Source: Kiritimatiellia bacterium (GTDB lineage Bacteria; Verrucomicrobiota; Kiritimatiellia; CAIVKH01). Taken from it: a stretch of DNA of 64,000 bases. The stretch lies in NCBI GenBank assembly GCA_035327585.1, contig DAOLDD010000004.1, positions 93,327 through 157,326 on the forward strand, given 5' to 3'. Positions within the stretch are counted from its first letter, which is position 1. The number at the start of each line of letters is the position of its first letter. This document shows, in pieces, positions 7,639 to 60,345 of the stretch. The translations under genes were made by a program, and so were the position numbers. Below the pieces are notes generated by a model. It had not been told where the DNA came from, did not search any database, and worked only from the letters and a program-made list of their open reading frames with translations.

Positions 7639-7645
7639 CGCGGCG

Positions 7646-8539: not shown

Positions 8540-9303
8540 GCGGTGCCGCGCCGCGCCGCGATGCTGCGTTCGTGCGGGGTGGCGGGCGGCGAGCGGCGCA
8601 GGCCGCCCTGGAAGAACAGCTTCCACACCATCCACAGCGCCTCCTTGACGATCGCGCCGCTCATCTTCGACGCCCCCGAGCGGCGCTCCTCAAACGTGAT
8701 CGGCACTTCCTCCACGCGGAAACCGCTCATCCACGCGTGGTGCGTCATCTCGATCTGGAACGAGTAGCCGTTGGATTTGATCTCATCCAGCGGGATGGTC
8801 TCCAGCACCGCGCGCCGGAAACATTTAAACCCGCCCGTCGGGTCGGTGAACGGCATCCCGGAAATCAGCTTCACGTAGACCGCCGCGCCCTTGCTCAAAA
8901 TCAGGCGGCCCAGCGGCCAGTTGATCACGCGGATGCCGCCCTTATAGCGCGTGCCCAGCACGAGGTCCGCGTCCCGCGCCGCATCGCGGAATTTCACGAG
9001 GTCCGCCGGGTTGTGCGAAAAATCGCAGTCCATCTCGCCGATGAACTCGTACCGCCGCGCCAGCGCCCACTTGAAGCCCGCGATGTAGGCGCGGCCGAGG
9101 CCCTGCTTCTTCTCGCGGTGCAGGACATGCACGCGCGGCTCCGCCTCCGCCATCCGGTCGAGCAGCCGTCCGGTGCCGTCGGGCGAATTGTCGTCGACGA
9201 AAAGGACGTCGGCCCACGGCGCGTGCTGGTGCACCGCGAGCGCCATTTCCCGCACGTTGTCGATCTCGTTGTACGTCGGGATGATGACCAGGTAGTCGTT
9301 CAT
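8536..9303 (-). CDS. GT2 polyprenyl-phosphate glycosyltransferase (dolichyl/polyprenol-phosphate mannose synthase-like)
   Basis: 255 aa. N-terminal VIIPTYNE, the DDNSPDGT motif, and a DxD-like (E/D)xD in GEMDCDFSHNP are typical of the DPM1-like GT2 family. Translationally coupled to the UbiA gene. Confidence 0.8.
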   Translation of the reverse strand: MNDYLVIIPTYNEIDNVREMALAVHQHAPWADVLFVDDNSPDGTGRLLDRMAEAEPRVHVLHREKKQGLGRAYIAGFKWALARRYEFIGEMDCDFSHNPADLVKFRDAARDADLVLGTRYKGGIRVINWPLGRLILSKGAAVYVKLISGMPFTDPTGGFKCFRRAVLETIPLDEIKSNGYSFQIEMTHHAWMSGFRVEEVPITFEERRSGASKMSGAIVKEALWMVWKLFFQGGLRRSPPATPHERSIAARRGTA

Positions 9304-9392
9304 TCAGCCGCAGTCTATGAAGTGACGCCCCCGCGGGCAAGCGCCGCCGATGTTGAACCGCGCCCGCCCGCCCCCTATACTTACCCGTTCGC

Positions 9393-9953
9393 ATGAAACT
9401 GGATATGCATTATTACGGCGACCCGGTGCTCCGCGCGCCGGCCGCCCGCGTCGAGGCCGTCACGGACGAATTGCGCCAACTCGCCGCGGCGATGATTGAG
9501 GCGATGCACACGGAAAATGGCGTCGGCCTCGCCGCCCCGCAAATCGGCCGCTCCGTCGCGCTGTGCGTCGTCGAGCTGCCGGTCGACTACGACACCACCG
9601 AGGACGGACGCCGCCTTAACCCGGACGTTGAAATGCCGCTGGTCCTCATCAATCCGGAGATCGTCTCCATCGGGCGCAAGACCGACGTGCATGAGGAGGG
9701 CTGCCTCAGTTTCCCCGGCCTGCGCGGCAACATCGAGCGCCCCATCGACATCACCGTCCGTTATCTCGGGCTCGACGGGCAGCCGCGCGCGCGGGCGTTT
9801 ACGGATTTTCTCGCGCGCGTCATCCAGCACGAAGTCGACCACCTCAACGGCGTACTCTTCATCGACCGCATGTCCGCCGCGAAGCGGTTCGCGCTCAAAG
9901 GCAGGTTGCGGAAGCTGGAAAACGAGACCAGGGAGCGCCTCGGCCTCGCGTGA
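9393..9953 (+). CDS. def: Peptide deformylase
   Basis: 186 aa. Motifs GVGLAAPQIG, EGCLSFPG and HEVDHLNG are the three conserved PDF motifs. Confidence 0.95.
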   Translation: MKLDMHYYGDPVLRAPAARVEAVTDELRQLAAAMIEAMHTENGVGLAAPQIGRSVALCVVELPVDYDTTEDGRRLNPDVEMPLVLINPEIVSIGRKTDVHEEGCLSFPGLRGNIERPIDITVRYLGLDGQPRARAFTDFLARVIQHEVDHLNGVLFIDRMSAAKRFALKGRLRKLENETRERLGLA

Positions 9954-33905: not shown

Positions 33906-36323
33906 ATGCAGGACTTCGAGAAACTTGGGGCGTTCTATCTGGGCAAGGAATTCGAGCTCGGTGCGGGACGGCGCACGGACAACCTGCTGTTGTACGACGC
34001 CAAGGACCTGACAACGCATGGCGTCATCGTGGGTATGACCGGCAGCGGGAAAACCGGGTTGGCTTTGTCGCTGCTGGAGGAGGCCGCGATCGACGGCATA
34101 CCGACCATCGCCATCGACCCTAAGGGTGACCTCGGCAACCTGCTGCTGGCGTTTCCCGACCTTCAGCCCTCGGATTTCCGCCCCTGGATCGACCCCGCGG
34201 AAGCGACGCGCAAAGGAATGGACGCGGACGCGTTCGCCGCGAAGACGGCGGAAACCTGGCGGAACGGGCTGGCCGAATGGGGCCAGGATGGCGCGCGCAT
34301 CCGGCGCTTCAAAGACGCCGTGGACCTCGCGATCTATACGCCGGGCAATGCGGCGGGACGTCCCCTGCAAATCCTCCGTTCCTTCGCGGCGCCGTCCGCC
34401 GAGACGTTGCAGGACGCATCCGCACTGCGCGAGCGCATCATGTCCGCGGTTTCGGGCCTGCTGGGCTTGATGGGCATCAACGCCGACCCGATCCAGAGCC
34501 GGGAACACATCCTGCTCTCCAATATTTTTGACCGCGCATGGCGCGACGGCCGCGGCCTCGACATCGCCGCGATTATCGGGGAAATCCAGAAGCCGCCGTT
34601 CGAAAAAATAGGCGTCTTCGACCTTGAATCCTTCTATCCCGCGAAAGATCGCTTCGGCCTCGCCATGGCGCTCAACAACCTCATTGCGTCGCCCGGTTTT
34701 TCCGCGTGGATGGAGGGGGAGCCGCTCGACATCCAGCGCCTGCTCTACACGCCCGAGGGCAAGCCGCGCATCGCGATTCTCTCCATCGCGCACCTGTCCG
34801 ACGCGGAGCGCATGTTCTTTGTGACGATCCTGCTGAACGAGGTGCTCTCGTGGGTCCGCGCGCAATCGGGCACCAGCAGCCTGCGCGCGCTGCTCTACAT
34901 GGATGAAATCTTCGGCTACTTCCCGCCCACCGCGAACCCACCGTCGAAGATCCCGATGCTGACGCTGCTCAAACAGGCGCGCGCGTTTGGTGTCGGCGTC
35001 GTGCTGTCTACGCAGAACCCGGTGGACCTCGACTACAAAGGCCTCGCGAACGCGGGTACCTGGTGGATTGGCCGCCTGCAAACCGAGCGCGACAAGATGC
35101 GCGTTGTGGAAGGGCTCGAAGGCGCTGCAGCCACCGCGGGCGCGGGTTTTGATCGTGGACAGATCGAGCAGATCCTCGCCGGTTTGGGCAATCGTGTCTT
35201 CCTGATGCGCAATGTGCACGACGACGAACCGGTCGTATTCCAAAGTCGCTGGGCGCTGAGCTATCTGCGCGGTCCCATGACCCTGCCCCAAATCAAGCAG
35301 GCGATGTCGCGTTCCCCGTCAGCCTCCGCCTCGGTCTCGGAGTCGGTATCGGAATCGCCTGTGGTCCCTTCATCAACACCCTCCGTCTCCGCCCGCCCCG
35401 TCCTCCCCCCCGAAATCGCCGAATACTTTTTGCGCCCCGCCAACCCAACGGGCGACCTCGTGTACCGCGCGAGCGTGATCGGCGTGAGCAAGCTGCACTT
35501 CGTGGATGCGAAGGCCGGCGTGGATACGTGGGTAACACGCTCGCTGATCGCCCCGGTGGGCGAGGATGGATTTGCAGATTGGGAGGCCGCACGTGTGGAA
35601 GGCGACCTCAAGGGCGTCCTGGATCGCCAGCCCATGAGCGGTGCTTCGTTTGGCGCCGTGCCGGCTGCCGCGACGCGCAAGCAAAGCGCGAACCATTGGC
35701 AAAAGACGCTGGAGGCGCATTTGTACCAGCATGTCACGCTCGACCTCTTTGTCTGTCCGGCGCTCAAGATGACCTCGCGTCCGGATGAGCCCGCGGGGGA
35801 TTTCACCGCGCGCGTAGGGCAGGCCCTGCGCGAGAAGCGCGATGAAGAGGTCGGGAAACTGAAGGCCAAATACGCGACGCGGCTGCAGACGCTGACGGAT
35901 CGGATTCGTCGCGCGGAGGAAAAAGTTGCCCGCGAGAAGGCGCAGGCCGGTCAGCAGAAACTTTCGACAGCGCTCGGATTGGGCGCGACGATCTTGGGCG
36001 CGCTGATGGGGCGGCGTGTCATGACCGCCGGCAATGTGTCGCGCGCCGCATCGACGATGAAATCCGCCGGCCGCATCAGCAAGGAGGCCGCCGATGTCGA
36101 GCGAGCGGGCGAATCGCTGGAGGTGACGAAACAGCGAATGGCCGAACTGGAGCAGCAGTTCGAGTCCGAGATCGAAGCCTTGCAGGGCCAGTGGGACCCG
36201 GATAGCGCGACAATCGACACCACGCAGGTGCGTCCGCGCAAATCGGATATCACCATTGGCGCCGTCGGCCTGTGCTGGACGCCGTGGCGCAAGGCGGCGG
36301 ACGGGTTGGTGGAGCCGGCATGA
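33906..36323 (+). CDS. HerA/FtsK-superfamily P-loop ATPase (DUF853/AAA-like domain) with long C-terminal coiled-coil region
   Basis: 805 aa. Walker A GMTGSGKTGLALSLLEE. Walker B in LLYMDEIFGYFP (hhhhDE). An arginine-finger-like conserved block. The C-terminal third is Ala/Glu/Lys/Arg-rich coiled coil. Translationally coupled (ATGA) to the cvpA-like gene. Confidence 0.6.
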   Translation: MQDFEKLGAFYLGKEFELGAGRRTDNLLLYDAKDLTTHGVIVGMTGSGKTGLALSLLEEAAIDGIPTIAIDPKGDLGNLLLAFPDLQPSDFRPWIDPAEATRKGMDADAFAAKTAETWRNGLAEWGQDGARIRRFKDAVDLAIYTPGNAAGRPLQILRSFAAPSAETLQDASALRERIMSAVSGLLGLMGINADPIQSREHILLSNIFDRAWRDGRGLDIAAIIGEIQKPPFEKIGVFDLESFYPAKDRFGLAMALNNLIASPGFSAWMEGEPLDIQRLLYTPEGKPRIAILSIAHLSDAERMFFVTILLNEVLSWVRAQSGTSSLRALLYMDEIFGYFPPTANPPSKIPMLTLLKQARAFGVGVVLSTQNPVDLDYKGLANAGTWWIGRLQTERDKMRVVEGLEGAAATAGAGFDRGQIEQILAGLGNRVFLMRNVHDDEPVVFQSRWALSYLRGPMTLPQIKQAMSRSPSASASVSESVSESPVVPSSTPSVSARPVLPPEIAEYFLRPANPTGDLVYRASVIGVSKLHFVDAKAGVDTWVTRSLIAPVGEDGFADWEAARVEGDLKGVLDRQPMSGASFGAVPAAATRKQSANHWQKTLEAHLYQHVTLDLFVCPALKMTSRPDEPAGDFTARVGQALREKRDEEVGKLKAKYATRLQTLTDRIRRAEEKVAREKAQAGQQKLSTALGLGATILGALMGRRVMTAGNVSRAASTMKSAGRISKEAADVERAGESLEVTKQRMAELEQQFESEIEALQGQWDPDSATIDTTQVRPRKSDITIGAVGLCWTPWRKAADGLVEPA

Positions 36324-36806: not shown

Positions 36807-36914
36807 ATGAACGAGCTTGTCAGTCAGTTGGTGTCTCAGTTGGGTGTGCAGGAGTGGCAGGCCACCGGTGGACCAGAAATCGTTAATTTGCTCTCGTTGG
36901 TGTTAAGGAAATAG
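36807..36914 (+). CDS. Small ORF (35 aa, MNELVSQLVSQLGVQEWQATGGPEIVNLLSLVLRK) followed by a hairpin; possible leader peptide/small protein upstream of the RyR-ATPase gene
   Basis: ATG at 36807 preceded by a purine-rich SD-like sequence. The ORF sits in a low-GC intergenic patch. An inverted repeat cgggcacgaa...ttcgtgccg lies at about 36918-36960. Confidence 0.25.
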   Translation: MNELVSQLVSQLGVQEWQATGGPEIVNLLSLVLRK

Positions 36915-37010: not shown

Positions 37011-39596
37011 ATGAAGACGAATCGCACGGCAGCCGTGGGCGGTGATGTTTGCATTGATTGGCTTTCCGTTCCCGTCAGTCCGGCCGTGGACCGGGGGCAG
37101 GAGCCGAACTGGCGCCTATGCGGCGGAGAGCATATGTTCGCCGTGCGCGGCGGCGCCTGGCTGACCGCCGATCTGCTGGAAGCCGCGGCACCGGAAGGCG
37201 TCCGCGTTGTCAAGCCGACGCCCCGCGACCGGCTCGACAGCGTTCCGCCCGATGAAATCGTCCACTCGCTGATCCGGCTGCGCCCCGTGTCGCGAAGCCC
37301 CAAAAGCGGCGAGAAGGTTTGGCGCGTTGCGTCGTACCAAGGGTATGCGGGGCCCTGGCGGGACAACGTTTCGCCCGTGCAACCCGGCTTGGAAGCCCCC
37401 TGTTCACAACCCGACCTCATCCTGCTGGACGACGCGGGGAACGGCTATCGCGATGCGACGGCATCGTGGAAGGACTTCTTGACCGCTGCCGGCGCGACGC
37501 CGCTCGTCGTGTACAAAGGACGGCGTCCGTTGATGCGGGGCGCGCTGTGGGACACCGTGCGTGCGCGTCACGCGGAACGGACGGTCGTGGTGTTGACGGC
37601 GGGCGAAATGCGGGCCGCCGGGGCGTTGATCGGCAAGGGGCTGTCCTGGGAAAAAACCGCGTACGAGGCGTGGGTGTCGCTGGCGTTCCGGCCTTCGTTT
37701 GCCGAATTTCGCGCGTGCGCCGGCATCGTCATCACCTTTGGATTGGAGGGCGCCCTGGCGGTCGACACGCGCGGCGGCCGCCTGCACACGGCTCGGCTGT
37801 GGTACGCACCGCGCCTGATCGAAGGCGATCTCGAAAAAGTTTGCGAAGGAACGATGACCGGGTTTGGGTCGGCCTTCGCCGCCGGTCTGGCGGCCCACAT
37901 GCTGACGGCGCCGGTTGCCGGTCGGGTGGAGTCGGATGCCCTTTCGGCGGCGGCCCGGCACGGCCTTTGCTGCGCTCGCCGATTGTTGGAAGAGGCCTTC
38001 GGTCCGGTGGAGATCAAAAACGCATCCGGGCCCGCCATTCGGCGACTGCCGGCCTATCCGGAAGGCGAGACCGCCCAGGCGATCATGAAGTCGCCGCTGC
38101 GTCCCGGCGACCTCGATCTGGTGGAGTGCCCGGTGGCCCTTCTCTCCGCCGATCTGGCGCCGAACAAGGTCGAGGAGGCTCGCGCATGGCAGATCCTAAA
38201 TGTACGGCGAACCCGGTCGATGCAGGAACTGGCGGAGGAAACGCTGCTCAACGGAATTGAAAAAGCGTTTTCCGATGTGCCGACCGGAACGTTCGCGAAA
38301 CTGATCACGATCGACCGCGCGGAAATCGAGGGCCTGCGATCAATTCAGAATCTTATGGTGGAGTACATCCGGCTGCCGAACCCGGAACGTCCGCTCTGCC
38401 TGTCCGTTTTCGGACAGCCGGGATCGGGGAAGTCGTTCTGCGTAAAGCAGGTGGCTAAATCGGTTGCGGAATCCCTTCGGGATGTCGTGATCGAACCGAT
38501 CGAATTCAATCTGACCCAGTGGGCCGCGGCGGATCAACTGATCGAGGCGCTGCACCGGGTGCGGGACATCGTGTTGCGCCGGAAGGTGCCGCTGGTCTTC
38601 TTCGACGAATTCGACTCCCCGCGCGAAGGCTCAAATCTCGGCTGGCTCAAGTCCTTCCTCGCACCGATGCAGGACGGCGTGTTTTCGGATGGTCATTTCG
38701 ACTACCAGATCGGACGCGCGATATTTGTCTTTGCCGGCGGCACCTCGCATTCATTCCATGCCTTCTCGGAGTTGGGCCGCACCCTTCCCGCGGATGTGAA
38801 GGCGACGGATTTCCTGAGCCGGTTGCGTGGGCATGTGAATGTGCTGGGGTTTGACCAGCCCATCGGTACCAACATGGTTCGGCGTGCCGTCGTCCTCCGC
38901 GTCGCCCTGATGAAGCAGTTTCCGGGGTTGTTTGATGTCGGCGGCACGTTGCGTATCGACCGCGACGTGGCGCGTGCCTTTCTTACCGTTTCGGGCTACC
39001 GGCACGGCGCGCGCTCGATCGAGGCTCTTGTGGACATGAGCCGGCTGGTCGGGTGCGACCAATTCCATCCGGCCTGCCTGCCACCCCGTCCGCAGCTTGA
39101 ACAGCACGTGGATGCCGCAGCGTTCGAGCGCATCCTGCTGCGCGACCATTCGATCGGGGAACAGCTCGAGATCATCGCGCGGCGTCTGCATGAAGCCTAC
39201 CTCGCGTTTTCCTATGGCCGTGGAAAGGCGCGCAACAGCCGCCCGGCGTTGCGGGCCTGGGAGGAACTTTCGGAGTTGTACCGGAATTCCAATCGCGAAC
39301 AGGCCGCCCACATTCCGGAAAAAATGGCGGTGATCGGGCTCGAAATCCGTTTGGGTGAACCGGCGGCTTCCGACGGCGCGCCGGTCGAGGCCTTCTCGGC
39401 GGAGCAGGTGGAGCGCCTCGCGCAACTTGAGCATGTGCGCTGGATGGGGGAGCGCATGCTGGGTCAACCGGAGCATCCCGATCTGCAACCGTGGGAGGCA
39501 TTGGACGAGGATGCCAGGGAAATTGACCGCGTTGCCATCCGCGCGATCCCTGCGATCCTGCGATCGTGCAATTTATGGATCATGCCGATGCGCTGA
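37011..39596 (+). CDS. Multidomain protein: N-terminal PfkB/ribokinase-like domain (degenerate), central AAA+/P-loop ATPase, C-terminal RyR (ryanodine-receptor-type) domain
   Basis: 861 aa. The N-terminal region ends with GTMTGFGSAFAAGLAAHML, which aligns with the PfkB anion-hole motif DTTGAGDAF.G but lacks the catalytic Asp. Walker A SVFGQPGSGKSFCVKQV. Walker B VPLVFFDEFDS. Sensor-1-like FVFAGGTS. The C-terminal segment VERLAQLEHVRWMGERMLGQPEHPDLQPWEALDEDAREIDRVAIRAIPAIL matches the bacterial RyR-domain repeat (EH.RW...R...GW, DxD...D). Confidence 0.6.
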   Translation: MKTNRTAAVGGDVCIDWLSVPVSPAVDRGQEPNWRLCGGEHMFAVRGGAWLTADLLEAAAPEGVRVVKPTPRDRLDSVPPDEIVHSLIRLRPVSRSPKSGEKVWRVASYQGYAGPWRDNVSPVQPGLEAPCSQPDLILLDDAGNGYRDATASWKDFLTAAGATPLVVYKGRRPLMRGALWDTVRARHAERTVVVLTAGEMRAAGALIGKGLSWEKTAYEAWVSLAFRPSFAEFRACAGIVITFGLEGALAVDTRGGRLHTARLWYAPRLIEGDLEKVCEGTMTGFGSAFAAGLAAHMLTAPVAGRVESDALSAAARHGLCCARRLLEEAFGPVEIKNASGPAIRRLPAYPEGETAQAIMKSPLRPGDLDLVECPVALLSADLAPNKVEEARAWQILNVRRTRSMQELAEETLLNGIEKAFSDVPTGTFAKLITIDRAEIEGLRSIQNLMVEYIRLPNPERPLCLSVFGQPGSGKSFCVKQVAKSVAESLRDVVIEPIEFNLTQWAAADQLIEALHRVRDIVLRRKVPLVFFDEFDSPREGSNLGWLKSFLAPMQDGVFSDGHFDYQIGRAIFVFAGGTSHSFHAFSELGRTLPADVKATDFLSRLRGHVNVLGFDQPIGTNMVRRAVVLRVALMKQFPGLFDVGGTLRIDRDVARAFLTVSGYRHGARSIEALVDMSRLVGCDQFHPACLPPRPQLEQHVDAAAFERILLRDHSIGEQLEIIARRLHEAYLAFSYGRGKARNSRPALRAWEELSELYRNSNREQAAHIPEKMAVIGLEIRLGEPAASDGAPVEAFSAEQVERLAQLEHVRWMGERMLGQPEHPDLQPWEALDEDAREIDRVAIRAIPAILRSCNLWIMPMR

Positions 39597-39702
39597 AGGG
39601 AATTCCGTGTCGCCCCCCTCCTGCACTGTTGCGCGGCCAGCGATCCCCCTCGTGGTACAGGTGGGTTTTATCCGGGCGGGTGTCGACGTTGATGCCTCCG
39701 CG

Positions 39703-41115
39703 ATGCCTTCGCTGGCCCGCGAGATTCAGGACCGGTTGCGCCGGTTGCCGGATGCACTGGGCTTGGCGCCGTCGCACATCCCGGGAGGGATTTCCTCCCT
39801 TGGGTGCGCCGCCGACGAAGTATTTACCAGCGCCTGCGCTGAACTGCGGTGGCCCCAGCGGTTTTTCCTTCCGACGGATGCGGGTCTGGACTCGGCCTGG
39901 ATGGCGGCGCCGCACGTCATCCAGGCGCGTGTGCTGAACGAGTGCGCCGAGGTGGACGATCGCCTCGAGGATGTGGATCTGGAAATCCTGCGCGTCTGTG
40001 ACGTGCTGCTCGTGCTGGTCGATGCGGAGCGGGCTGACGCGTCGCCGTCCCCCGTGATCGCCCGCGCGCGTGTCCGGCGCAAGCCGCGGCTGGAAATCCG
40101 TCTCGAGCACTCCCCGGGCGGTGAACCCCGATGGAGGGCGGACTGGTGTGATCGGGATGAATTTAGTGTTCCAACCCTACCGGGCGAACTCGACGGCCTG
40201 CCCGGGCTGCCTCCGGGTTGTCCGTCCGCCGGAGATCTTGCTCAGCACCTACTGGGGACGGCCAACCGGCAGGCGATGGCGACACAGCGCTTCTTTCGAT
40301 GTTCCGCCCTCGTGGTGATTGGTGCGCATGTCGCCGCGACCCTGTGTGCAGTGCTTGCCCTCAAGCTCCACGGCGAAATTCAGGGCGCCATTCTGGGGCT
40401 GGAAATTGCACTGCTTGCCGCGGGCTTGGCTGCTCATCATTGGGTGCATCACGCGCAGGCCACGCGGCGCTGGAGTATGGCGCGGCTGGTGGCGGAAATC
40501 GGCCGTTCCGTGGGGGCGTTGCATGGCGTCGCCGCGTACCTGTCGCACCTCTTCACGCTGCCGTTTCCAGAATCCGTACGGCCGGTGACCCGCACGCTGC
40601 GTGTGCTGCATCTGCGCGATACGTACCGTATGCGGTGCGACGACTGGCGTGCGCGCCGGGACGCCTATCTGGAGGACCGGATCACCAACTCAAACAGCGG
40701 GCAGCTCGCGTATTATGGCCTCCACGCGGATCGCGCGGCCCGGCGCTTGAAACTGGCGCGCCGGGTGTTCCTGTCGGGATCACTCCTCGCGCTGTGTGCC
40801 GCCGCGGGGAAGTGGGTCCTGTACGCGGGCACGCACACGCAGGGCTCCGCATGGTTGCCGGGCGTGCTCGGCGCCCTGGCCATCCTGATGCCGGTGTTGT
40901 CCGTGGCCGCCCTCTCGCTCGCCGCGTCGTTTGACCTGGAGGCGCGGATGCACACCTATCGGGAGATGATGGCCTTCCTGCGCCGACAGGAGCGCTATTT
41001 GCGGGATGCGGCATCGGAGCGCGAGTTCACGGCATTGGCGCTGGAGACGGAATTCCGGCTGCTCGGCGAAACCGCCAGCTGGTATACGCGCCGATTTTTT
41101 ACCGGCGTGAACTGA
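39703..41115 (+). CDS. Membrane protein: N-terminal Rossmannoid (SLOG/flavodoxin-like?) domain plus two tandem 2TM modules (SLATT-like effector candidate)
   Basis: The start is ATG at 39703, in frame with the 39355..41115 ORF; upstream GTG alternatives exist. The N-terminal 170 aa have an alternating beta-alpha pattern (ISSLGCAADEVFTSA...VDLEILRVCDVLLVLVD). Two pairs of TM helices follow, each succeeded by a conserved charged helix (RRWSMARLVAEIGR..., LEARMHTYREMMAFLRRQERYLRDA). Confidence 0.45.
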   Translation: MPSLAREIQDRLRRLPDALGLAPSHIPGGISSLGCAADEVFTSACAELRWPQRFFLPTDAGLDSAWMAAPHVIQARVLNECAEVDDRLEDVDLEILRVCDVLLVLVDAERADASPSPVIARARVRRKPRLEIRLEHSPGGEPRWRADWCDRDEFSVPTLPGELDGLPGLPPGCPSAGDLAQHLLGTANRQAMATQRFFRCSALVVIGAHVAATLCAVLALKLHGEIQGAILGLEIALLAAGLAAHHWVHHAQATRRWSMARLVAEIGRSVGALHGVAAYLSHLFTLPFPESVRPVTRTLRVLHLRDTYRMRCDDWRARRDAYLEDRITNSNSGQLAYYGLHADRAARRLKLARRVFLSGSLLALCAAAGKWVLYAGTHTQGSAWLPGVLGALAILMPVLSVAALSLAASFDLEARMHTYREMMAFLRRQERYLRDAASEREFTALALETEFRLLGETASWYTRRFFTGVN

Positions 41116-41123
41116 TCCTCCCG

Positions 41124-42728
41124 TCAGATCCGCATCCTGCGCCGGATTTCCTCGAACAGGGCGGCCTGCGCATCGCGCACCGCCGGTAACGCGCGTGCGC
41201 GAAGAAATCGATGGGTACGCGGCGTGCGATCGGACAGTAGGGCGACCAAATCACGCAGGGACGCCAGCGCATGCGTCGTCAGCACGAACACGCTGTGGCT
41301 GCCAAGAGACAGGGGGTGCGCGCACACCGCATCCAGTTCCGCGCCCAGCCGGGACAGCCGTTCCCGGATGTCTCGCGGATCGCGTTCCGCCCGGTGCGCG
41401 GTCAGGGATTGGAGCGTCTCCGCTGCGGCGCGCAGCAATTCGGATGCGCGCCGCAGGGATTGCAGGGTCTCGGCCCGCAGCGCATCCTCCTGCGTCCGGC
41501 CAGGCAATTCCCCCACGCGTCCGTGGTCGGCCAGCACCACCGCAAGATGGGCAGGCGAGAGGCGGCGCGCGCCCCAGGTCGCGTGCAGTCGCGCGAGGAC
41601 GGATTTGAGCTCGCGTAGATTCCCCGCCCAGCGCTGGCTGCGCAGCGCGTCCACCAGTCGCGCGGGCAGGGGTGGGGCGGCGTCTCCGGCGACGCGCCGC
41701 CACAGGGCCTGCGCCAGTTCCGGAACATCCTCCGTCCTCGTGCGCAAGGTGGGCAGGTGGATGACGAATTCAATCAGCCGGTAGTACAAATCCCAATCGA
41801 AACGCCCATCCGCGGCGAGCGCACAGAGATCGCGGCTCGTGGAGGCAACGAGCCGGCCTCGTCGCGGTTTCGGCTCAACGCCGCCATCTCCGTCGCGCAG
41901 GGCCTGGCGGAGTACGACCTGATCGGCCGGTCCGAGATCGCTCACCTCGTCCAGATAGAGCGTGTAGCGGTCGGGCTCCTTCACCACCGGCAGTTTGCGC
42001 GAATGGTCGCGCTCGAACCAACCGGCGCGTTGCAGCGCGTGCCGCAAATCGTGGCCCCGCGCCGTTGCACAGGAAAGATGGACGAACGATGCGCCTGCGT
42101 TCAGGTCGTGAATCAACCGAGCGACGAAATCCTTTCCCGTTCCGTGTTCACCGGCCAGCAACACCGTCCGCCTCCGCCCGGCCGTTCGCAGCAGTGCCGT
42201 CCGCACCGTCGCCGCCGCCGCCGAACGGCCGAGAAATGTGCCCACGCCCACCGCGATTCTGGGATCAAGGGGCTCGGGCCGGGCCGCCAGCGTTCGCGTC
42301 GTCGTTTCTTTGGCTGTCGAGGCGCGAAGCCGGAGCGCGCGGAAGATTGGTTCCGGCACACCGATCACGAAGCAATTGCGGTCGCCCTGTGCGCCCGCCT
42401 GATCGAGCAGGGTGCGGATGCTGCGCAGGCATTGCGATGCATCCGAATAACTCGCCCCCCGCAACAGCGCTGCGGAAGGCTGGCGCCGCAAACGGGGATA
42501 CGGCGCCAGCGCGTGGTGCTTGGCGCCGCGGTCGAGCAGGCGCGCGCCGTGCCGCTTAAGCAGCGCGGAACAGTCGTTGAGCGGCACGACCAGCACATGC
42601 GGTTGCGGGAAGGGGCCGGTGAGCCAGGTCTCTCCGACGACGGCGATCTGCGTGAGGCCTCCGCCGGGTTCATAGCGCAACGCCTGGATGGGAGATGGGG
42701 GCATCGGGTGTTTGAGTTTCAGCAGCAT
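41124..42728 (-). CDS. Sigma-54-interaction-domain AAA+ protein lacking the GAFTGA loop and lacking a C-terminal Fis-type HTH (EBP-like regulator)
   Basis: The ORF runs 41124..42812 with a TTG start. An internal ATG at 42728 (MLLKLKHPMPP) is the alternative start. Walker A LLAGEHGTGKDFVARLIH. Walker B TLYLDEVSDL. R-finger region RLVASTSRDL. No GAFTGA between Walker A and B. The C-terminus is coiled-coil-like. Confidence 0.6.
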   Translation of the reverse strand: MLLKLKHPMPPSPIQALRYEPGGGLTQIAVVGETWLTGPFPQPHVLVVPLNDCSALLKRHGARLLDRGAKHHALAPYPRLRRQPSAALLRGASYSDASQCLRSIRTLLDQAGAQGDRNCFVIGVPEPIFRALRLRASTAKETTTRTLAARPEPLDPRIAVGVGTFLGRSAAAATVRTALLRTAGRRRTVLLAGEHGTGKDFVARLIHDLNAGASFVHLSCATARGHDLRHALQRAGWFERDHSRKLPVVKEPDRYTLYLDEVSDLGPADQVVLRQALRDGDGGVEPKPRRGRLVASTSRDLCALAADGRFDWDLYYRLIEFVIHLPTLRTRTEDVPELAQALWRRVAGDAAPPLPARLVDALRSQRWAGNLRELKSVLARLHATWGARRLSPAHLAVVLADHGRVGELPGRTQEDALRAETLQSLRRASELLRAAAETLQSLTAHRAERDPRDIRERLSRLGAELDAVCAHPLSLGSHSVFVLTTHALASLRDLVALLSDRTPRTHRFLRARALPAVRDAQAALFEEIRRRMRI

Positions 42729-42734
42729 GGGTAA

Positions 42735-42800
42735 ACTCAATCCAATACTCAAGTCCGTAATGAGCCAAAAACTCAAACTCAAGCCGGCCGACTCAATTGT
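42735..42800. repeat. Cluster of TTGAGT/ACTCAA hexamer repeats (at least 5 copies) in the divergent intergenic region between the EBP-like gene and the secreted-protein gene
   Basis: Read directly on the minus strand: ..caattgagtcggccggcttgagtttgagtttttgg..gacttgagtattggattgagttta. Confidence 0.4.
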
Positions 42801-42918
42801 CCATTCGCGCAACCCGCTGGCAGCGTGGTGGTTGCGCTTGTTGCGAAATCGCGTCCGTACGCGCGTGTGCGTGGCGGGCCGCCCGGTAGGCTGGTTCCAT
42901 CAACCAGGAGGATTGGCG

Positions 42919-55095: not shown

Positions 55096-57568
55096 TGAGT
55101 ACACGGTCGAATATGCGATCTATAAACGCTACGCGGCGGTGTTAAAGGCGTGTCTGGAGACTGCGTGTTCCGTGGCGCTGCCGGAGGCGCTGGTGCAGGC
55201 GCGGCCGAAGTCGATCGCCAGCTTCGCGGAGAAGTGCGTCCGCAAGCAGGACAAGTACAAGGACCCGGTGCGGGACATGACGGACCTGTGCGGCGCGCGC
55301 GTGATCGTGCAGACGCTGAAGCAGGTGAATGCGGTGCGCCAGTTCATCGAGGCGAATTTCAAGATCGAGGAGCGCGACGACAAGACGGAGTCGCTGGGCG
55401 CGACGGAATTCGGCTACCGCGACATGCACTACATCGTGCGCATTCGGACGGGCGAGCCGCCGCCGGGTTTCTCCGACGAGGACGTAGCCGCGATCGGCTG
55501 CCGCCGCGCGGAGGTGCAGGTGCGCACGTGGGTGCAGCACGCGTGGGCCGACACGCTGCATGACCGGATGTATAAGACGAAGCTGAAATATCCGGCCGAA
55601 TTCAAGCGCATCGGTGCGTTGCTGGCGGCCATCATGGAGGACGGAGATCGTTCGTTCGACCGGCTGGCCGAAGACATCGACGGCATGCTCGCCAACTATT
55701 CCGCGTTCGCCGCCCCGGACGATGTCCGGAAGGAAATTGAGGTGCAGCGACTGATCCTCGCGAATGCGCCGGCCCACAAGCGGCCCGGTATCGCGCTTTC
55801 CCTCGCGCGCCTGCTCGTCGCGACCGGCGACTACGCCGGCGCGGTGGCGGAATTGGAACCGCATGCCGCCACTGCGGGTTCGTTGCAGGATGAAATCGAG
55901 CTGGAACTGGGCCACGCGCGCTGTAGGAACCATGCCGCAGCCCCGCGTTCCGACGATTTTCGGAGGGGCCAGGCGGACCTGCAGGGCGTGGTGGACCGTC
56001 TGGCAAAACCGACGCGTTCTCATGTGCCGAACCTGCGCAAACAACGAAGCCTGCATGCTCGCGCGCTGGCCCGGCTGGCCTGGTCGCACAGCCTCCAGCC
56101 CGGCGGCGCGCCCACGGCGCGCAAGCTCTATCAGGCCGCCCTTGCGCTGGAACCGGCGAATCCATATTTCCTGGCCGAGGTCGTGGGGCACGAAATCCAT
56201 TGGCAGGGCGGGCCCGAGCAGGCCGCGTTGCTGGCGCCGCAGATACGCTCGGCGATCGGGACCTGTCGCGAACACCTGGAGAACGGCACTGAGATGCCCT
56301 ATGCCTGCTTCACCGCCGGGCGTTTGTGCCTGTTGCTGGGCGAACCGTACGACGCGCTGTGCCTGTATGCGCGCGGAATCCGCCACTTCCTCTCCGGCGC
56401 ATCCGCGATGCTGGCTGATGTGCTGGCCGCCGAGGAGCAATGGCTGCTGCTCGTTTGCGGCGCCCATGAACCGGCGGAAGGCTATCGTTGGTGCTTGGAT
56501 CTGTTGTTGCTGGCTCGGCGCGTCGGTTCAGCGGAGAACCCCGCGGGGGCATCGCCGGTGATTATCGTCGCGGGCGGAGCCGGTACGTTGGGCGGCGCCG
56601 AATCCGCGCTCGTCCAGAACCTGCTGTCCGGGGCCTTGCCCGGCTTGAATGGCCTTGTGATTTCCGGCGGCACCCGGGCGGGCACGCCCGGCGCGGTCGG
56701 CGCGGCGGCGGAAGCATCGGACCAACGGGGAGGGCGGACGTTCCGAACGCGAGGGTATCTGCCCGCGCTGCTGTCCGAACATGAGCCGCGCGACGAACGC
56801 TATGACGAATTGATCACGTGTGGCGAACACGGGTTCACTCCAGAACAGCCGTTGCGGTACTGGCGCGATCTGTTCGATGCGGGGACATCGCCCGCTTCGG
56901 TGCGGCTCTTCGGTTTCGGCGGCGGTCGGATCAGCGGGTGCGAGTACGCCGTCGCACTGGCGCTGGGTTCCACCGTGGGCCTCGTCGCTGGCTCGCGGGG
57001 TCGTGCCGACAGAATGCTTGCGGACCCGGCCTGGCGCGGCGAGGCGAACCTCATTCCCTTGCCCTGCGACCCTGCGACGGTACGCGCGTTTTTGCAGCCG
57101 CACCGTTCGGACATCCCGGAGGAAGCGATCGAGGGCATGGCCCGCAACTTCCACGAGACGTATGTTGCAGGAAGCGCGAACCGGTTGCCGGACAATATGA
57201 AGCCGTGGCCCAGGCTGCCCGAAACCTACAAAACCGCGAATCGCGAACAGGCGCGATGTGTCATCCGCATCCTGGAAGCCTGTGGATTCGTCGTGCGCCC
57301 GGCCGGTGCGAATCCGTCCGCCATCAACTTCACGGAGGAGGAGGTCGAGCGCATGGCCGAACTCGAGCATGGCCGCTGGAATGTCGAGCGATTGCGCGAC
57401 GGCTGGCGGCCCGGTCCGCGGGACGACGCGAACAAGCGGCATCCCTGCATCGTTCCGTGGTCAGATCGCAAAACGCTCACCGAAGCGATCAAAGACTACG
57501 ATCGCAACGCGGTCCGCCAGTTCCCCGCCCAACTAGCCCGCGTGGGGCTTGATGTGGTACGGCCCTGA
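55055..57568 (+). CDS. Multidomain protein: N-terminal RelA/SpoT-type (RSH) nucleotide pyrophosphokinase domain, TPR-like helical region, LOG/SLOG-like Rossmann domain, C-terminal RyR domain
   Basis: 837 aa. It overlaps the abiEii 3' end by 41 nt. The synthetase motifs DMTDLCGARVIV, GYRDMHYIV and EVQVRTWVQHAWADTLHDRMYK match the RelA/SpoT synthetase G/RxKxxxSxxxK...D..G.R, GY...H and E.Q.RT..QH.W.E motifs. The LOG-like block VIIVAGGAGTLGGAESAL...GLVISGGTRAGTPGAVGAAA matches the GGGxxGLMG-type pattern. The C-terminal RyR segment MAELEHGRWNVERLRDGWRPGPRDDANKRHPCIVPWSDRKTLTEAIKDYDRNAVRQ is a near-textbook match. Confidence 0.7.
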   Translation: MSKLDQTTHKRFIDEYTVEYAIYKRYAAVLKACLETACSVALPEALVQARPKSIASFAEKCVRKQDKYKDPVRDMTDLCGARVIVQTLKQVNAVRQFIEANFKIEERDDKTESLGATEFGYRDMHYIVRIRTGEPPPGFSDEDVAAIGCRRAEVQVRTWVQHAWADTLHDRMYKTKLKYPAEFKRIGALLAAIMEDGDRSFDRLAEDIDGMLANYSAFAAPDDVRKEIEVQRLILANAPAHKRPGIALSLARLLVATGDYAGAVAELEPHAATAGSLQDEIELELGHARCRNHAAAPRSDDFRRGQADLQGVVDRLAKPTRSHVPNLRKQRSLHARALARLAWSHSLQPGGAPTARKLYQAALALEPANPYFLAEVVGHEIHWQGGPEQAALLAPQIRSAIGTCREHLENGTEMPYACFTAGRLCLLLGEPYDALCLYARGIRHFLSGASAMLADVLAAEEQWLLLVCGAHEPAEGYRWCLDLLLLARRVGSAENPAGASPVIIVAGGAGTLGGAESALVQNLLSGALPGLNGLVISGGTRAGTPGAVGAAAEASDQRGGRTFRTRGYLPALLSEHEPRDERYDELITCGEHGFTPEQPLRYWRDLFDAGTSPASVRLFGFGGGRISGCEYAVALALGSTVGLVAGSRGRADRMLADPAWRGEANLIPLPCDPATVRAFLQPHRSDIPEEAIEGMARNFHETYVAGSANRLPDNMKPWPRLPETYKTANREQARCVIRILEACGFVVRPAGANPSAINFTEEEVERMAELEHGRWNVERLRDGWRPGPRDDANKRHPCIVPWSDRKTLTEAIKDYDRNAVRQFPAQLARVGLDVVRP

Positions 57569-57588: not shown

Positions 57589-60345
57589 ATGAAGCGCATC
57601 TTTATTTCCTATGCCCGCGGCGATGACGAGCCCTTCGTGCGCCGACTCCAGGCGGACCTGGTGAAGGCCGGTTTTAGGGTGTGGTTCGACCGCGAATCGC
57701 TGCTGTCGCGGGGCCTCACCTTTCACCAGGAAATCCGGGATGCCATACGAACGGAGGTGGATCGTGTCGTCTATATTGGTGGTCCGCAGGCGGCGGTTTC
57801 GACCTACGTCCGCGAGGAGTGGCAGACGGCACTGGCCTTCGATCACGTGACGGTGACGCCCATCCTGCGGTTGGGGGACTATGACGGCATACCGGGCGAA
57901 CTACGACTGCTTCACTGCGAGGATTTTCGATCGGACGCCTCATATCCGTCCGCCGTGGCGCGGCTGGTCGAAAGTCTGCGGGCGCCCAATCCTCGGATGG
58001 GAGCCCTGCATGCGGTGCCGGAGCTGCCGATCCACTTCCTTGACCGACCCGAGTTGATGGCACGGATGCGCGCTGCGCTGCTGGTGGATCTGCAAACCCC
58101 GAACGTACGGAAACGCGGTGAAACATATGTGGGCGTCCAAGGCATGGGTGGGATCGGTAAGTCGGTGCTGGCCGGCGCGCTGGCGCGCGATCGACTGGTC
58201 CGTCAGGCCTATCCCGATGGCGTGTTCTGGGTTTGCTGCGGGCCCCATATGACGCAGGACGATGCCCTGCATCGCCAGCGTGAACTGGTTCGAATGCTCG
58301 GTGGACGTGACGACTTCGTGACGGTGCGGGAGGGACTGGTTCGTCTGGGCGCGCGCCTGGCTGAACGCGCCGCGCTTCTTGTCCTGGACGATGTGTGGAC
58401 GGTCGGCGATGTTGCGGCTTTCGATGCGCTCGGCCCCCGCTGTCGGACGTTGATCACGACGCGCGATGCGGGGGTGCTTCATACCTTGCGCGGCGAAACC
58501 GTTCCGGTGTCGCTCTTTCGCGAAGAGGATGCGTTGCGACTTCTGGCGGACGCGGTGGGCCGGTCGCCGTCCGAACTCCCGCCCGGAAGCATCGAGGTGG
58601 CGCGCGCGTGCGGTTGTCTGCCCCTGGCGCTGGCCCTGTGCGGAGGCATGGCGCGAAAGCAGGGCGGCGACTTCCGCTGGGTTTTGGAACGCCTTCGGCG
58701 GGCGGAACTGGACAAAATTGCCGACCGCCAATCCCTACAGGAACAACACCGGAATCTATGGCGGGCCATGCAGGCAAGTGTGGATGTCCTGCCGGAATTG
58801 GAGCTGGCGCGCTTTCGTGAGCTGTCGGTGTTCGATCCGCAGCGTCCGGTGCCGGCCGCGGCGGCGTCAACACTGTGGGCGCACACCGGTTCCATGTCCG
58901 ACATGGACGCGGAAGATCTGCTGACCAGCCTGGCGGAGCGTTCACTTGTGCAGCGTGACGTGCCGGATCCGTCCGCGGGGCCGCGGCCGTTCAGCCTGCA
59001 CCCGCTGGTGTACGAGTATGCCCGGCGAGTGGCCGGAGACGAGCGGGTGCTGCACCAGAAACTGCTGGAGGCCTATCGACGGAAAGCTGGCGGGACATGG
59101 GATGCCATCGTGGATGACGGCTATGTGCGCGCCTTTCTACCGTCGCATCTGGTGGGTGCGGAGGCCTGGGACGAGTTGCTTCGCATCATCGATGCGCCGT
59201 TTTTCGGATGCCTACACCGATGGGTCGAGCAGGGCGAAACAGCGATGGGCGTGGATTGCCTTGCGCCCCTCGTCGATCACCTGCTGACGTCCGGGCGGGC
59301 GCGTGGCCGGGCTGCCGCGCTGGCCTGTCAACTAGCCCGTGTGCATACGCAGCGCGGTGAACCAGCGGAGTCGGAGCGGCGCCTTCGCCAGGCGCTTGCC
59401 CATGCCCGCTGGTGGCGGGACGGACGCACCCGCGCCATCGCGCATCACGAATTGGGTTCGCTGGCCCTGTATGTCGGCGACCGCGCAAAGGCAGGGCGAT
59501 GCTATCGCCGGGCGCTTTGGTGGGCACGCTGTCTGGGGCCGGCTCATCTGGATGAAGTCGCGGCCAACCGTCTCGCGCTCGCCACGCTGAATCTAGAGGA
59601 ATACGACTACGAATCCGCGATCGCGCAGGCGCGCGCAGCGTTACCCCTCGCGTCCCGCATGGGCGACGCGGCGCATGTGGTCGCCGCGCATCGCCTTCTC
59701 GCCTCCGCATTCAAGGATCTGATGCGCGCGGACGAGGCCATGCGTCATCTGGACGAGGCTGCCGCCGTGGCCCGGACGGCGGATCGGCCGGTTGAACTCT
59801 TGCACGTCCATCTCGCGCTGGGCTGGCTGCGCTACACGGAGGCCGTGCTGGCGGGCCACTCGTTCGATTCCGCCGCTGGAATCTTCCGGAAATTGATGAA
59901 AGAAGCTGGAGCCATGGAACAACTCTATGTGGAGTTGGAGGCCGCCCTGGGGCTGGTCTGGACACTCCTGGCGGATGGGGACCGCGATGCCGCTGCGCGT
60001 GCGCTGGAAGGCATTCAGGAGTCGCGTGCCTCCGCACACAAGGAGCTGGCCAGCATGTTGACATTGGGCCGGGCCAAGCTGCATCAGGAATGCGGCGTCG
60101 GGGATGCCGGGCGATTCTATCTGGAGGTGCTGGAGTGGGCGCGGGCCGCCGGCAAGCGCGGCATGGAATCGGATGCGTTGGTCGCGCTGGGCGCCGCCCG
60201 CTGGCATGGGGGCGACAGGGGTGGCGCCGAATCGTTGTGGGCCGAGGCGCGCGCGGCGGCCGCGCGGTGTGCGCCGGTCCGGCGCAGCCTGGTCGACCTG
60301 AGCATTGAGGCCGCCCGGAGGGACGCCCACTTCTCGCCGCGCTGA
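57589..60345 (+). CDS. TIR-NB-ARC-TPR STAND protein (bacterial TIR-domain NLR-like defence protein)
   Basis: 918 aa. N-terminal RIFISYARGDDEPFVRRLQADLVKAGFRVWFDRESLLSRG is a classic TIR start. Walker A GVQGMGGIGKSVLAGAL. Walker B ALLVLDDVW. NB-ARC GLPL-like CGCLPLAL. C-terminal TPR/helical repeats. Confidence 0.8.
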   Translation: MKRIFISYARGDDEPFVRRLQADLVKAGFRVWFDRESLLSRGLTFHQEIRDAIRTEVDRVVYIGGPQAAVSTYVREEWQTALAFDHVTVTPILRLGDYDGIPGELRLLHCEDFRSDASYPSAVARLVESLRAPNPRMGALHAVPELPIHFLDRPELMARMRAALLVDLQTPNVRKRGETYVGVQGMGGIGKSVLAGALARDRLVRQAYPDGVFWVCCGPHMTQDDALHRQRELVRMLGGRDDFVTVREGLVRLGARLAERAALLVLDDVWTVGDVAAFDALGPRCRTLITTRDAGVLHTLRGETVPVSLFREEDALRLLADAVGRSPSELPPGSIEVARACGCLPLALALCGGMARKQGGDFRWVLERLRRAELDKIADRQSLQEQHRNLWRAMQASVDVLPELELARFRELSVFDPQRPVPAAAASTLWAHTGSMSDMDAEDLLTSLAERSLVQRDVPDPSAGPRPFSLHPLVYEYARRVAGDERVLHQKLLEAYRRKAGGTWDAIVDDGYVRAFLPSHLVGAEAWDELLRIIDAPFFGCLHRWVEQGETAMGVDCLAPLVDHLLTSGRARGRAAALACQLARVHTQRGEPAESERRLRQALAHARWWRDGRTRAIAHHELGSLALYVGDRAKAGRCYRRALWWARCLGPAHLDEVAANRLALATLNLEEYDYESAIAQARAALPLASRMGDAAHVVAAHRLLASAFKDLMRADEAMRHLDEAAAVARTADRPVELLHVHLALGWLRYTEAVLAGHSFDSAAGIFRKLMKEAGAMEQLYVELEAALGLVWTLLADGDRDAAARALEGIQESRASAHKELASMLTLGRAKLHQECGVGDAGRFYLEVLEWARAAGKRGMESDALVALGAARWHGGDRGGAESLWAEARAAAARCAPVRRSLVDLSIEAARRDAHFSPR

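Follow-up and report, generated by a model that had tools for sequence, protein, structure and literature searches.

A PfkB-like, AAA+ and tandem ryanodine receptor-repeat protein encoded beside a SLOG-SLATT protein in a Kiritimatiellia bacterium: a candidate Thoeris-like conflict module

According to what is reported of a 2015 Nucleic Acids Research study by Burroughs et al., SLATT proteins were predicted to be nucleotide-responsive pore-forming effectors linked with SLOG and TIR domains. The present analysis concerns two adjacent genes, here called gene 1 and gene 2, in a 64,000-nucleotide (nt) stretch of DNA from a Kiritimatiellia bacterium (GenBank assembly GCA_035327585.1, contig DAOLDD010000004.1, positions 93,327 to 157,326 of the forward strand; the whole stretch is referred to as the window). 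Gene 1 encodes a PfkB-like domain, an AAA+ ATPase and tandem ryanodine receptor (RyR) repeats, and gene 2 encodes a SLOG-like domain followed by two SLATT-type modules of two transmembrane (2TM) helices each. Among the closest described systems are those of the Thoeris type. In type VII Thoeris, the TIR protein ThsB works with the SLATT effector ThsH and the signal is canonical cyclic ADP-ribose (cADPR), and in type I Thoeris a SLOG domain reads 3'cADPR (10.64898/2025.12.03.692087, 2025 preprint). Avs-type TIR-STAND proteins, which usually use TIR as an NADase effector rather than as a signal maker, were left out of the Thoeris survey. Phage proteins with an RyR domain (PF02026) bind, and in one case cleave, 2'cADPR and 3'cADPR, and counter Thoeris as glycosidases or sponges (PMC13232231, 2026 preprint). 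The ligand residues of the phage protein RyDEP are H75, W78, H100 and D117; among eight RyDEP homologs tested, six bound signals and none cleaved them (PMC13232231). YpsA, which gives its name to a SLOG clade with a predicted substrate-binding signature of GxD/E, acts in cell division and stress (PMC6459960). A literature search brought up no report of multi-domain RyR proteins encoded by hosts within such systems, and the later papers of the Burroughs group that were searched do not mention RyR; the only functional work it found on prokaryote-associated RyR domains was the 2026 preprint on phage anti-defence proteins (PMC13232231).

The gene pair is best read as a local, reduced form of a conflict system that recurs elsewhere, comprises several genes and is organised around signals derived from nicotinamide adenine dinucleotide (NAD), of the ADP-ribose (ADPR) type. 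On the sequence evidence it is somewhat probable that the pair forms a Thoeris-like conflict module, in which an NAD-derived signal would be handled by a RyR-ATPase component and a SLATT membrane effector; its defence role and its pore function are what we infer. The gene set in related loci consists of a TIR or DUF4062 domain fused to a STAND NTPase with TPR or WD40 repeats, a SLOG or SLOG-2xSLATT protein, a PfkB-like-AAA+-tandem-RyR protein and, often, further RyR proteins (TrkA_N-RyR, RelA/SpoT-SLOG-RyR) and NUDIX. The same parts were recovered when starting from the RelA-SLOG-RyR family. TIR/SLOG/SLATT nucleotide-signalling conflict systems are known; the RyR-ATPase family is new as a component of them. 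The gene set around gene 1 is widespread and undescribed and travels with TIR-type immune sensors, suggestive of a place for bacterial RyR domains in NAD-derived immune signalling.

An original prediction, made from the DNA letters alone, had proposed that the two genes form a module, a proposal that would fall if they did not co-occur in other genomes. In tblastn searches of 31 gene 2 loci with gene 1, and of 80 metagenomic gene 1 loci with gene 2, the two genes were found together only in a close relative (L001; 72–75% identical, same synteny); gene 1 was not found in the 30 other genomic gene 2 loci, nor gene 2 in the 80 metagenomic gene 1 loci. Taken alone, this outcome spoke against a module, and profile searches reversed it. 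Neighbours were counted by iterative profile search, with gene 1 open reading frames (ORFs) removed from the targets. SLOG or SLOG-SLATT relatives were found to adjoin gene 1 homologs in 33 of 83 loci. Such relatives lay within 500 nt of the gene 1 homolog in 26 loci (18 on the same strand), compared with 8.1 expected under uniform placement in the available flanks. Among the 52 well-flanked loci, defined as those with at least 4 kb of flank, a SLOG/SLATT relative was present in 23, a TIR or DUF4062 gene in 25, and one or the other in 33; many of the TIR/DUF4062 neighbours were within 60 nt of the gene 1 homolog and on the same strand. Co-occurrence thus extends well beyond L001, and the pairing of gene 1 with gene 2 is not chance.

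The partners of gene 1 are varied. Full-length SLOG+SLATT_3+SLATT_1 proteins are encoded about 10–20 nt downstream of gene 1 homologs, for example in L033 and L065, and other gene 1 homologs adjoin stand-alone SLOG domains of about 190 residues. The partners come from different SLOG families and lie upstream or downstream, which indicates repeated selection for pairing. The pair itself is kept with gaps of 10–20 nt in L001, L118 and L117, although gene 2 of L117 is only 48% identical; P0005, a gene 2 relative at 48% identity whose pocket is decayed in the same way as that of the window protein, is encoded 19 nt after a gene 1 homolog, with mraZ following. Outside the window clade, the closest gene 1 homologs (53–55% identity) are found in an operon encoding a TPR protein, a TIR-caspase-CsgG protein, a SLOG-TM protein and the gene 1 homolog. 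In two such loci (L112, 1939–4242; L113, 1978–4269) a single protein of 763–767 residues combines TIR_2, a caspase-like Peptidase_C14 domain and CsgG, and its gene lies upstream of the SLOG-TM gene and the gene 1 homolog. A TIR gene lies beside the effector gene in the related loci L112/L113, L115, L018 and L009, and not in the window operon.

The family of gene 1 is large: it has 147 close matches, and among 1.84 billion representatives it makes up 1,926 clusters at 50% identity (E<=1e-30). Its best label so far is "Ryanodine receptor Ryr". Gene 1 was matched by no model of NCBIfam or PADLOC, PADLOC-DB 2.0 giving only noise for it (E 0.013–0.017) and nothing for gene 2, and Pfam recognised in it no more than AAA, weakly, and RyR, below threshold. 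One full-length homolog (32% identity), annotated "Ryanodine receptor Ryr", is encoded at 6989–9553 of the Clostridium estertheticum plasmid pCF009-b (L122). The AlphaFold2 (AF2) model of residues 1–345 of gene 1 has a mean predicted local distance difference test (pLDDT) score of 92.7, and in a Foldseek search of the PDB the best 50 matches listed were all ribokinase/PfkB-family kinases, including HldA, ribokinase, ketohexokinase and adenosine kinase (E to 8.8e-11, probability 1.00, TM-score 0.42–0.51 and identity 10–18% for the matches listed). Pfam PfkB (PF00294) did not match gene 1 at E<=0.1. The motif GTMTGFGSAF occupies residues 280–289, so that its GFGS has S287 where GAGD has Asp, an equivalence drawn by sequence pattern and not by structural alignment. 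Across 60 family members the catalytic-Asp column holds Ser in 45, Ala in 7, Asp in 7 and Pro in 1; those with Asp include P0177 (GVGDAF), P0154 and P0118. The GD..D motif and GG dipeptide (G11, D12, D16, G47, G48) are invariant. Since the catalytic Asp is found in only 7 of 60 members, the degenerate, ligand-binding reading of the original prediction stands for most of the family, in which the PfkB-like domain is probably a ligand-binding module and not a kinase; the seven that keep it mean that some members may still be kinases.

The P-loop ATPase that follows is genuine, as had been proposed from its motifs. The Walker A (residues 468–475) and Walker B (residues 529–535) residues are invariant in 60 homologs, the Pfam AAA match scores 22.6 bits against a cut-off of 21.2, and the nearest solved AAA+ proteins, matched weakly (Torsin, Rpt1, Vps4 and Rubisco activase), belong to the classical clade. 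A conserved SRLRG motif (R604, R606) is a candidate only for an arginine finger or sensor. The last 155 or so residues form the RyR repeats, and here the original assignment of a C-terminal RyR domain was extended to a tandem pair. The gene 1 protein alone scored 19.1 bits against Pfam RyR, under the threshold of 27.4, and the family profile matched RyR2 at E 4.9e-24, over all four of its repeats, and the single-repeat RyR-like protein of B. thetaiotaomicron (3NRT) at E 5e-12. Repeats A and B aligned to each other with hhalign at a probability of 98% (E 2.7e-13), as expected of two repeats in a predicted pseudo-symmetric unit. Repeat A has H727 and Y730, and its SNR motif carries Asn where repeat B has Asp. 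In repeat B, H808 is conserved in 60 of 60 sequences and D839 in 59, W811 is Trp in 53 and Phe in 5, and H822 is His in 38 and Ser in 17. By motif spacing, these four residues are putative counterparts of H75, W78, H100 and D117 of RyDEP; the alpha1-alpha2 loop of repeat B has 10 residues in the window clade versus 21 in half of the family.

The AF2 model of gene 2 (pLDDT 92.4) shows a beta/alpha domain at residues 15–181 and then long helices, and the hydrophobic helix pairs found by hydropathy are present as helices in the model, in agreement with the predicted beta/alpha N-domain and two TM helix pairs. The N-domain has a SLOG Rossmannoid fold, with its best fold match in the YpsA clade and not in ThsA. 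The GxD signature, which reads G68-A-D70 in the family consensus, is A68-A-D70 in the window protein, and P0005 has P68. A GG[TS] loop present in 47 of 52 family members is lost in the window protein, its close relative P0002 and P0005, as is a 20-residue insert, and all three have a changed Gly in GxD. The SLATT assignment of the 2TM modules is carried by the family: the window protein itself matched SLATT_3 (Pfam E 1.4e-3, NCBIfam 8.8e-3) and SLATT_1 (NCBIfam E 2.2e-4, Pfam 8.2e-3) under threshold in every case, while SLATT_1 was matched by 28 of 52 members (best 3.5e-7), SLATT_3 by 7 of 52, and the distant relative in L033 gave a SLATT match over the cut-off, at 34.7 bits. The gene 2 profile had no match among PDB sequences. 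The ORF is intact and the C-terminal modules are highly conserved. Decay of the SLOG pocket tracks adjacency to gene 1, as in the window protein, P0002 and P0005; motif-intact orthologs of gene 2 are not beside gene 1 and adjoin DUF4062-STAND-TPR or TIR-STAND-TPR genes.

The two genes are also closer than had been thought. The original prediction placed the start of gene 2 about 100 nt downstream of gene 1; the gap from the stop of gene 1 to GTG 39607 is 10 nt, with AAGGGA ahead of the GTG. The mechanical ORF start, 39355, falls inside gene 1, and the ATG at 39703 used in the public annotation cuts off the conserved strand LPLVVQLGF. An alignment of 52 homologs puts the N-terminus about 12 residues ahead of this strand, and the 32 residues gained by GTG 39607 can be aligned with the N-termini of 51 homologs and include the first beta-strand. 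Because the homolog alignment and the AF2 model both support these residues, GTG 39607 is most likely the true start. The product of gene 2 has an identical record from a Kiritimatiellia metagenome-assembled genome. The features of the window are collected in Table 1.

Table 1. Coordinates of the gene pair, its domains and other features in the window
Feature	Coordinates	Strand	Description
Gene 1	37011..39596	+	861-residue ORF: PfkB-like domain, AAA+ ATPase, tandem RyR repeats
Ribokinase/PfkB-fold domain	37011..38006	+	Gene 1 residues 1-332; Ser287 at the place of the catalytic Asp
AAA+ ATPase module	38280..39110	+	Gene 1 residues about 424-700; Walker A GQPGSGKS, Walker B VFFDEFD
RyR repeat A	39156..39368	+	Gene 1 residues 716-786; degenerate
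RyR repeat B	39399..39587	+	Gene 1 residues 797-859; H808, W811, H822, D839
Gene 2	39607..41115	+	502 residues from GTG 39607: SLOG-like domain, two SLATT-type 2TM modules
YpsA-like SLOG domain	39643..40161	+	Gene 2 residues about 13-185; decayed pocket
First 2TM module	40228..40518	+	Gene 2 residues 208-304; TM 229-253, 257-280 and following helix; SLATT_3-like
Second 2TM module	40666..41097	+	Gene 2 residues 354-497; TM 387-405, 413-440 and following helices; SLATT_1-like
EBP-like sigma-54-activator-type AAA+ protein	41124-42812	-	Stop 8 nt from gene 2 stop
DUF4062-NACHT-TPR protein	48413..53389	+	1658 residues, Pfam; candidate trans partner (sensor or signal generator)
AbiEi/AbiEii pair	53576-55095	+	AbiEii toxin PF08843 at 54094-55095; preceding 213-residue ORF without Pfam match
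RelA_SpoT + LSDAT-type SLOG + tandem RyR protein	55055..57568	+	837 residues; Pfam RelA_SpoT 6.9e-17, RyR 2e-14
TIR_2-NB-ARC-TPR protein	57589..60345	+	918 residues; Pfam TIR_2 2e-18, NB-ARC 7.3e-26; candidate TIR signal source

The analysis shows domain identities, motif states and genomic linkage, and these are consistent with the following proposed scheme. A STAND-TIR or STAND-DUF4062 protein would sense the invader and convert NAD+ to an ADPR-type signal, as its recurrence among the neighbours and the published Thoeris systems suggest. The signal would be read by SLOG and/or RyR domains, by analogy with the reading of 3'cADPR by SLOG in ThsA and of 2'cADPR and 3'cADPR by the phage RyR domains. 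Gene 2 would then open or assemble its SLATT helices in the membrane, as expected of its family, and stop the infected cell. Gene 1, which retains the putative His/Trp/His/Asp ligand set of repeat B and the sugar-side residues of the PfkB-like domain, is for this reason taken to be an ATP-driven, ligand-reading partner and regulator of gene 2. Since the pocket motifs of gene 2 have been lost where it always follows gene 1, sensing has probably moved from the SLOG domain of gene 2 to gene 1 in the window lineage. This would apply to the window clade only, as the AEGAD and GGT motifs are intact in most of the SLOG proteins that accompany other gene 1 homologs; a general rule that gene 1 replaces the SLOG sensor was ruled out on these grounds. 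A broader proposal, which we put forward tentatively, is that host tandem RyR repeats form a fourth class of receptor, next to SLOG, Macro and others, for the cyclic ADP-ribose signals that TIR proteins make. The PfkB-like-AAA+-RyR, TrkA_N-RyR and RelA/SpoT-SLOG-RyR proteins would then be signal-gated outputs or relays of a large undescribed family of bacterial TIR systems. From these would descend two pairings known from animals, cADPR with ryanodine receptors and ADPR with the SLOG domain of TRPM2. The window lineage would have handed ligand sensing to the RyR-ATPase, on behalf of a SLATT pore with a decayed SLOG pocket.

Several observations weigh against a Thoeris-like module. Neither kind of partner is present in 19 of the 52 well-flanked gene 1 loci, and the plasmid copy in L122 is solitary among chemotaxis and two-component genes, with no SLOG, SLATT or TIR neighbour annotated. 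The window operon has no TIR gene, the nearest DUF4062 gene being 7.3 kb and the nearest TIR gene 16.5 kb away. Because TIR domains of the Avs type usually serve as NADase effectors, adjacency to such genes could reflect clustering in defence islands or the use of NADase by-products. The SLATT matches of the window gene 2 itself are all under threshold, PADLOC has no model for either gene, and the SLOG domains beside most other gene 1 homologs are motif-intact. With regard to RyR, the correspondence with the RyDEP residues follows from motif spacing and not from structural alignment, and the alpha1-alpha2 loop, part of the ligand cavity of RyDEP, is about 11 residues shorter in the window clade.

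The main rival explanation assigns gene 1 the opposite sign. It could be a negative regulator or reset component, in which repeat B, through a His808/Asp839 dyad, would hydrolyse or soak up a cADPR-type signal and the AAA+ module would dismantle SLATT assemblies, setting a threshold and protecting the cell from its own effector. The near-invariance of the putative counterparts of the RyDEP dyad H75/D117, the action of phage RyR proteins as glycosidases or sponges, and the position of gene 1 beside intact SLOG sensors in most loci, where a second sensor would not be needed, all fit this explanation. However, six of the eight RyDEP homologs tested bound signals and none cleaved them, so that a kept dyad is no predictor of catalysis, and damping of the signal leaves unexplained why the gene 2 pocket is lost only where gene 2 follows gene 1. 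We consider a reset role unlikely. It is less likely still that the two genes are independent of each other, gene 2 being a decaying orphan effector of a TIR-STAND system and gene 1 a self-contained signalling ATPase that shares defence islands with it. The finding of the pair by tblastn in L001 only, the degenerate pocket of gene 2, and the absence of partners of gene 1 from about a third of the well-flanked loci and from the plasmid are what independence would lead one to expect. It is at odds with the persistence of the pair at 10–20 nt spacing despite the fall of gene 2 identity to 48%, with the intact ORF, conserved C-terminal modules and confident model (pLDDT 92) of gene 2, and with SLOG relatives that occur within 500 nt of gene 1 homologs at three times expectation, from different families and on either side.

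A physiological role outside defence was also considered, in which the RyR protein, its TrkA_N partners and the membrane protein would set ion flux according to NAD(H)/ADPR metabolism. The pair lies among chromosomal housekeeping genes, from the HerA-like/CvpA genes to MraZ; the nearby CvpA gene and an MscL gene in the relative L118 would fit such ion or osmotic signalling, TrkA_N-RyR genes lie beside gene 1 homologs in 14 loci, and YpsA, the closest fold match of gene 2, acts in cell division and stress. The dominant neighbours in related loci are nevertheless hallmarks of conflict systems (TIR-STAND and DUF4062-STAND proteins, caspase fusions, NUDIX and toxSAS-like RelA), and the distribution is patchy across phyla, which together make a purely physiological module decidedly improbable. 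The least credible reading makes gene 1 either a sugar or nucleoside kinase with a housekeeping role or an anti-Thoeris factor carried by a prophage. The ribokinase fold and the anti-Thoeris activity of phage RyR proteins recommend these two versions, which are already largely refuted. A metabolic kinase is not expected to be fused to AAA+ and RyR modules, and 53 of 60 family members lack the catalytic Asp, as the original prediction had anticipated in reading gene 1 as something other than an intact housekeeping kinase. A phage origin of gene 1 was ruled out, as tblastn of 50,697 phage records gave no match; chromosomal synteny is conserved and the flanking genes scanned had no phage-type domain match. 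A Thoeris-like module with gene 1 as the ligand-reading partner of gene 2 is retained as the preferred explanation.

The pair is flanked on one side by a HerA-like ATPase gene and cvpA and on the other by a convergent sigma-54-type AAA+ gene and then mraZ. The HerA/FtsK-like ATPase (805 residues, window positions 33906–36323, + strand) gave a PADLOC mad8 match at 9.4e-13, and in L001 and L118 its gene shares synteny with cvpA, DUF2780 and gene 1. Upstream of gene 1, the original prediction had described a low-GC leader with a small ORF and a hairpin. The 35-residue ORF is there (36807–36914, + strand; MNELVSQLVSQLGVQEWQATGGPEIVNLLSLVLRK), and consists of the N- and C-terminal remains of a DUF2780 gene (about 126 residues, PF11075), of which L001 and L118 (7493–7873) have an intact copy in this position; by this comparison it is an internally deleted DUF2780 remnant. 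The drop in GC is modest (0.61–0.63 versus 0.66–0.68 in flanking windows), and the hairpin is no stabler than shuffled sequence (fold energy z = +0.70). Pattern scans of the leader and of the sequence after gene 2 found no promoter-like or terminator-like site.

The convergent gene downstream encodes a protein similar to enhancer-binding proteins (EBPs), and its AAA+ type and lack of GAFTGA are as predicted. No helix-turn-helix match was found in it, and its N-domain of 190 residues had no match. A CARF reading was rejected, as the PADLOC RtcR models match only the AAA+ part (residues 193–428). Conservation of the gene is confined to the close relative L001 and one distant case, L047, where an EBP-like relative (5692–6777) lies 1–2 kb upstream of a gene 1 homolog; for this reason it is not counted as a part of the module.

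Elsewhere in the window are further genes of the kinds that accompany gene 1 homologs in other genomes. The DUF4062-NACHT-TPR gene is preceded by a gene for a TPR protein of 326 residues (47423–48403). Relatives of the DUF4062-NACHT-TPR protein (28–34% identity over about 750 residues) flank gene 1 homologs in L096, L075, L065, L034, L080, L110 and L108, at distances from about 50 nt in L065 and L108 up to 4.6 kb in L034. The second RyR protein that the original prediction had noted in the window was recovered with both RelA_SpoT and RyR matches. It shares with gene 1 the C-terminal cassette (profile positions 706–860; E 1.7e-36), a cassette common to RelA-SLOG-RyR and TrkA_N-RyR proteins (E 1e-36 to 1e-46). 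The RelA-SLOG-RyR family has more than 533 matches of the same architecture, some fused to NUDIX. In the three contexts covered, its members occur with NUDIX and DUF4062-STAND or TIR genes; in two of these contexts the family member also adjoins a full-length gene 1 homolog, and in one it is also near a SLOG-SLATT gene. The neighbour of the family member is a gene 1 homolog in L119 and L121, and in L074 the gene 1 homolog comes after a gene for a more remote RelA-RyR relative (28% identity). TrkA_N-RyR proteins directly adjoin gene 1 homologs in 14 of 83 loci; they are about 600 residues long and combine TrkA_N (NAD-binding, RCK-type) with tandem RyR (L038 1197–3020, L102 6127–7956, L034 4372–6168 and 11 further loci). 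The view that RyR is a recurring module thus holds in this genome and beyond it. The TIR_2-NB-ARC-TPR gene starts 20 nt after the RelA-SLOG-RyR gene, and the two together look like a separate two-gene TIR system with a putative alarmone-synthetase-like output. The AbiEii ORF overlaps the start of the RelA-RyR gene by 41 nt. The AbiEi/AbiEii pair sits where L119–L121 carry NUDIX, immediately ahead of the RelA-RyR gene, and may be an insertion that displaced NUDIX.

The analysis places a large protein family that has lacked a functional name, with about 1,900 clusters at 50% identity, in the TIR/SLOG/SLATT network, whose immune signals are derived from NAD. Its neighbourhoods suggest that hosts use the RyR domain inside their own defence systems, to be compared with the anti-defence use of RyR by phages. 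Gene 1 and its kin offer a concrete set of proteins in which to look at RyR-cADPR binding, with a bearing on the long-standing debate over direct action of cADPR on ryanodine receptors. The window lineage amounts to a natural experiment, a SLATT effector without a sensor pocket of its own that is always paired with a RyR-ATPase.

In comparison with known systems, gene 2 fits the description reported for the SLOG/SMODS-SLATT conflict systems of Burroughs et al. The pair resembles type VII Thoeris in having a SLATT-type membrane effector that is genomically coupled to TIR genes, and in the presumed course from an NAD-derived signal to a membrane effector. It differs in that ThsH, by its description, has a SLATT annotation only, whereas gene 2 joins SLOG to two SLATT modules, and in that the window operon lacks a TIR gene and has the added PfkB-like-AAA+-RyR protein, of which the main text of the type VII report makes no mention (10.64898/2025.12.03.692087). 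In type I ThsA (SIR2-SLOG) and in type III Thoeris (several TIRs and a SLOG effector), SLOG is the receptor of a TIR-made cADPR isomer, and the N-domain of gene 2 shares this fold; unlike ThsA, gene 2 has SLATT helices as its output in place of SIR2, a fold of the YpsA clade, and has lost the GxD and GGT motifs. The N-domain of gene 1 has the fold of the PfkB/ribokinase kinases together with their conserved GD..D motif and GG dipeptide, but the catalytic Asp is replaced by Ser, identity is 10–18%, and the domain is fused to AAA+ and RyR modules. With RyDEP and the other viral PF02026 proteins, gene 1 shares the domain family, and its repeat B has candidate counterparts of the His/Trp/His/Asp at RyDEP spacing. 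In contrast to them it is host-encoded and chromosomal, carries its two repeats in tandem on a single chain where RyDEP is a homodimer, joins them to AAA+ and PfkB-like domains, has an alpha1-alpha2 loop that is shortened, and presumably serves as a sensor or regulator within a defence system rather than against one. The tandem repeats of gene 1 match all four repeats of RyR2 and resemble the Repeat12 (R12) domains of animal ryanodine receptors, and the RelA-SLOG-RyR protein of the window joins RyR to a SLOG domain of the LSDAT type found in TRPM2; whereas the animal domains are parts of Ca2+ channels, the bacterial ones are predicted to be soluble regulatory modules.

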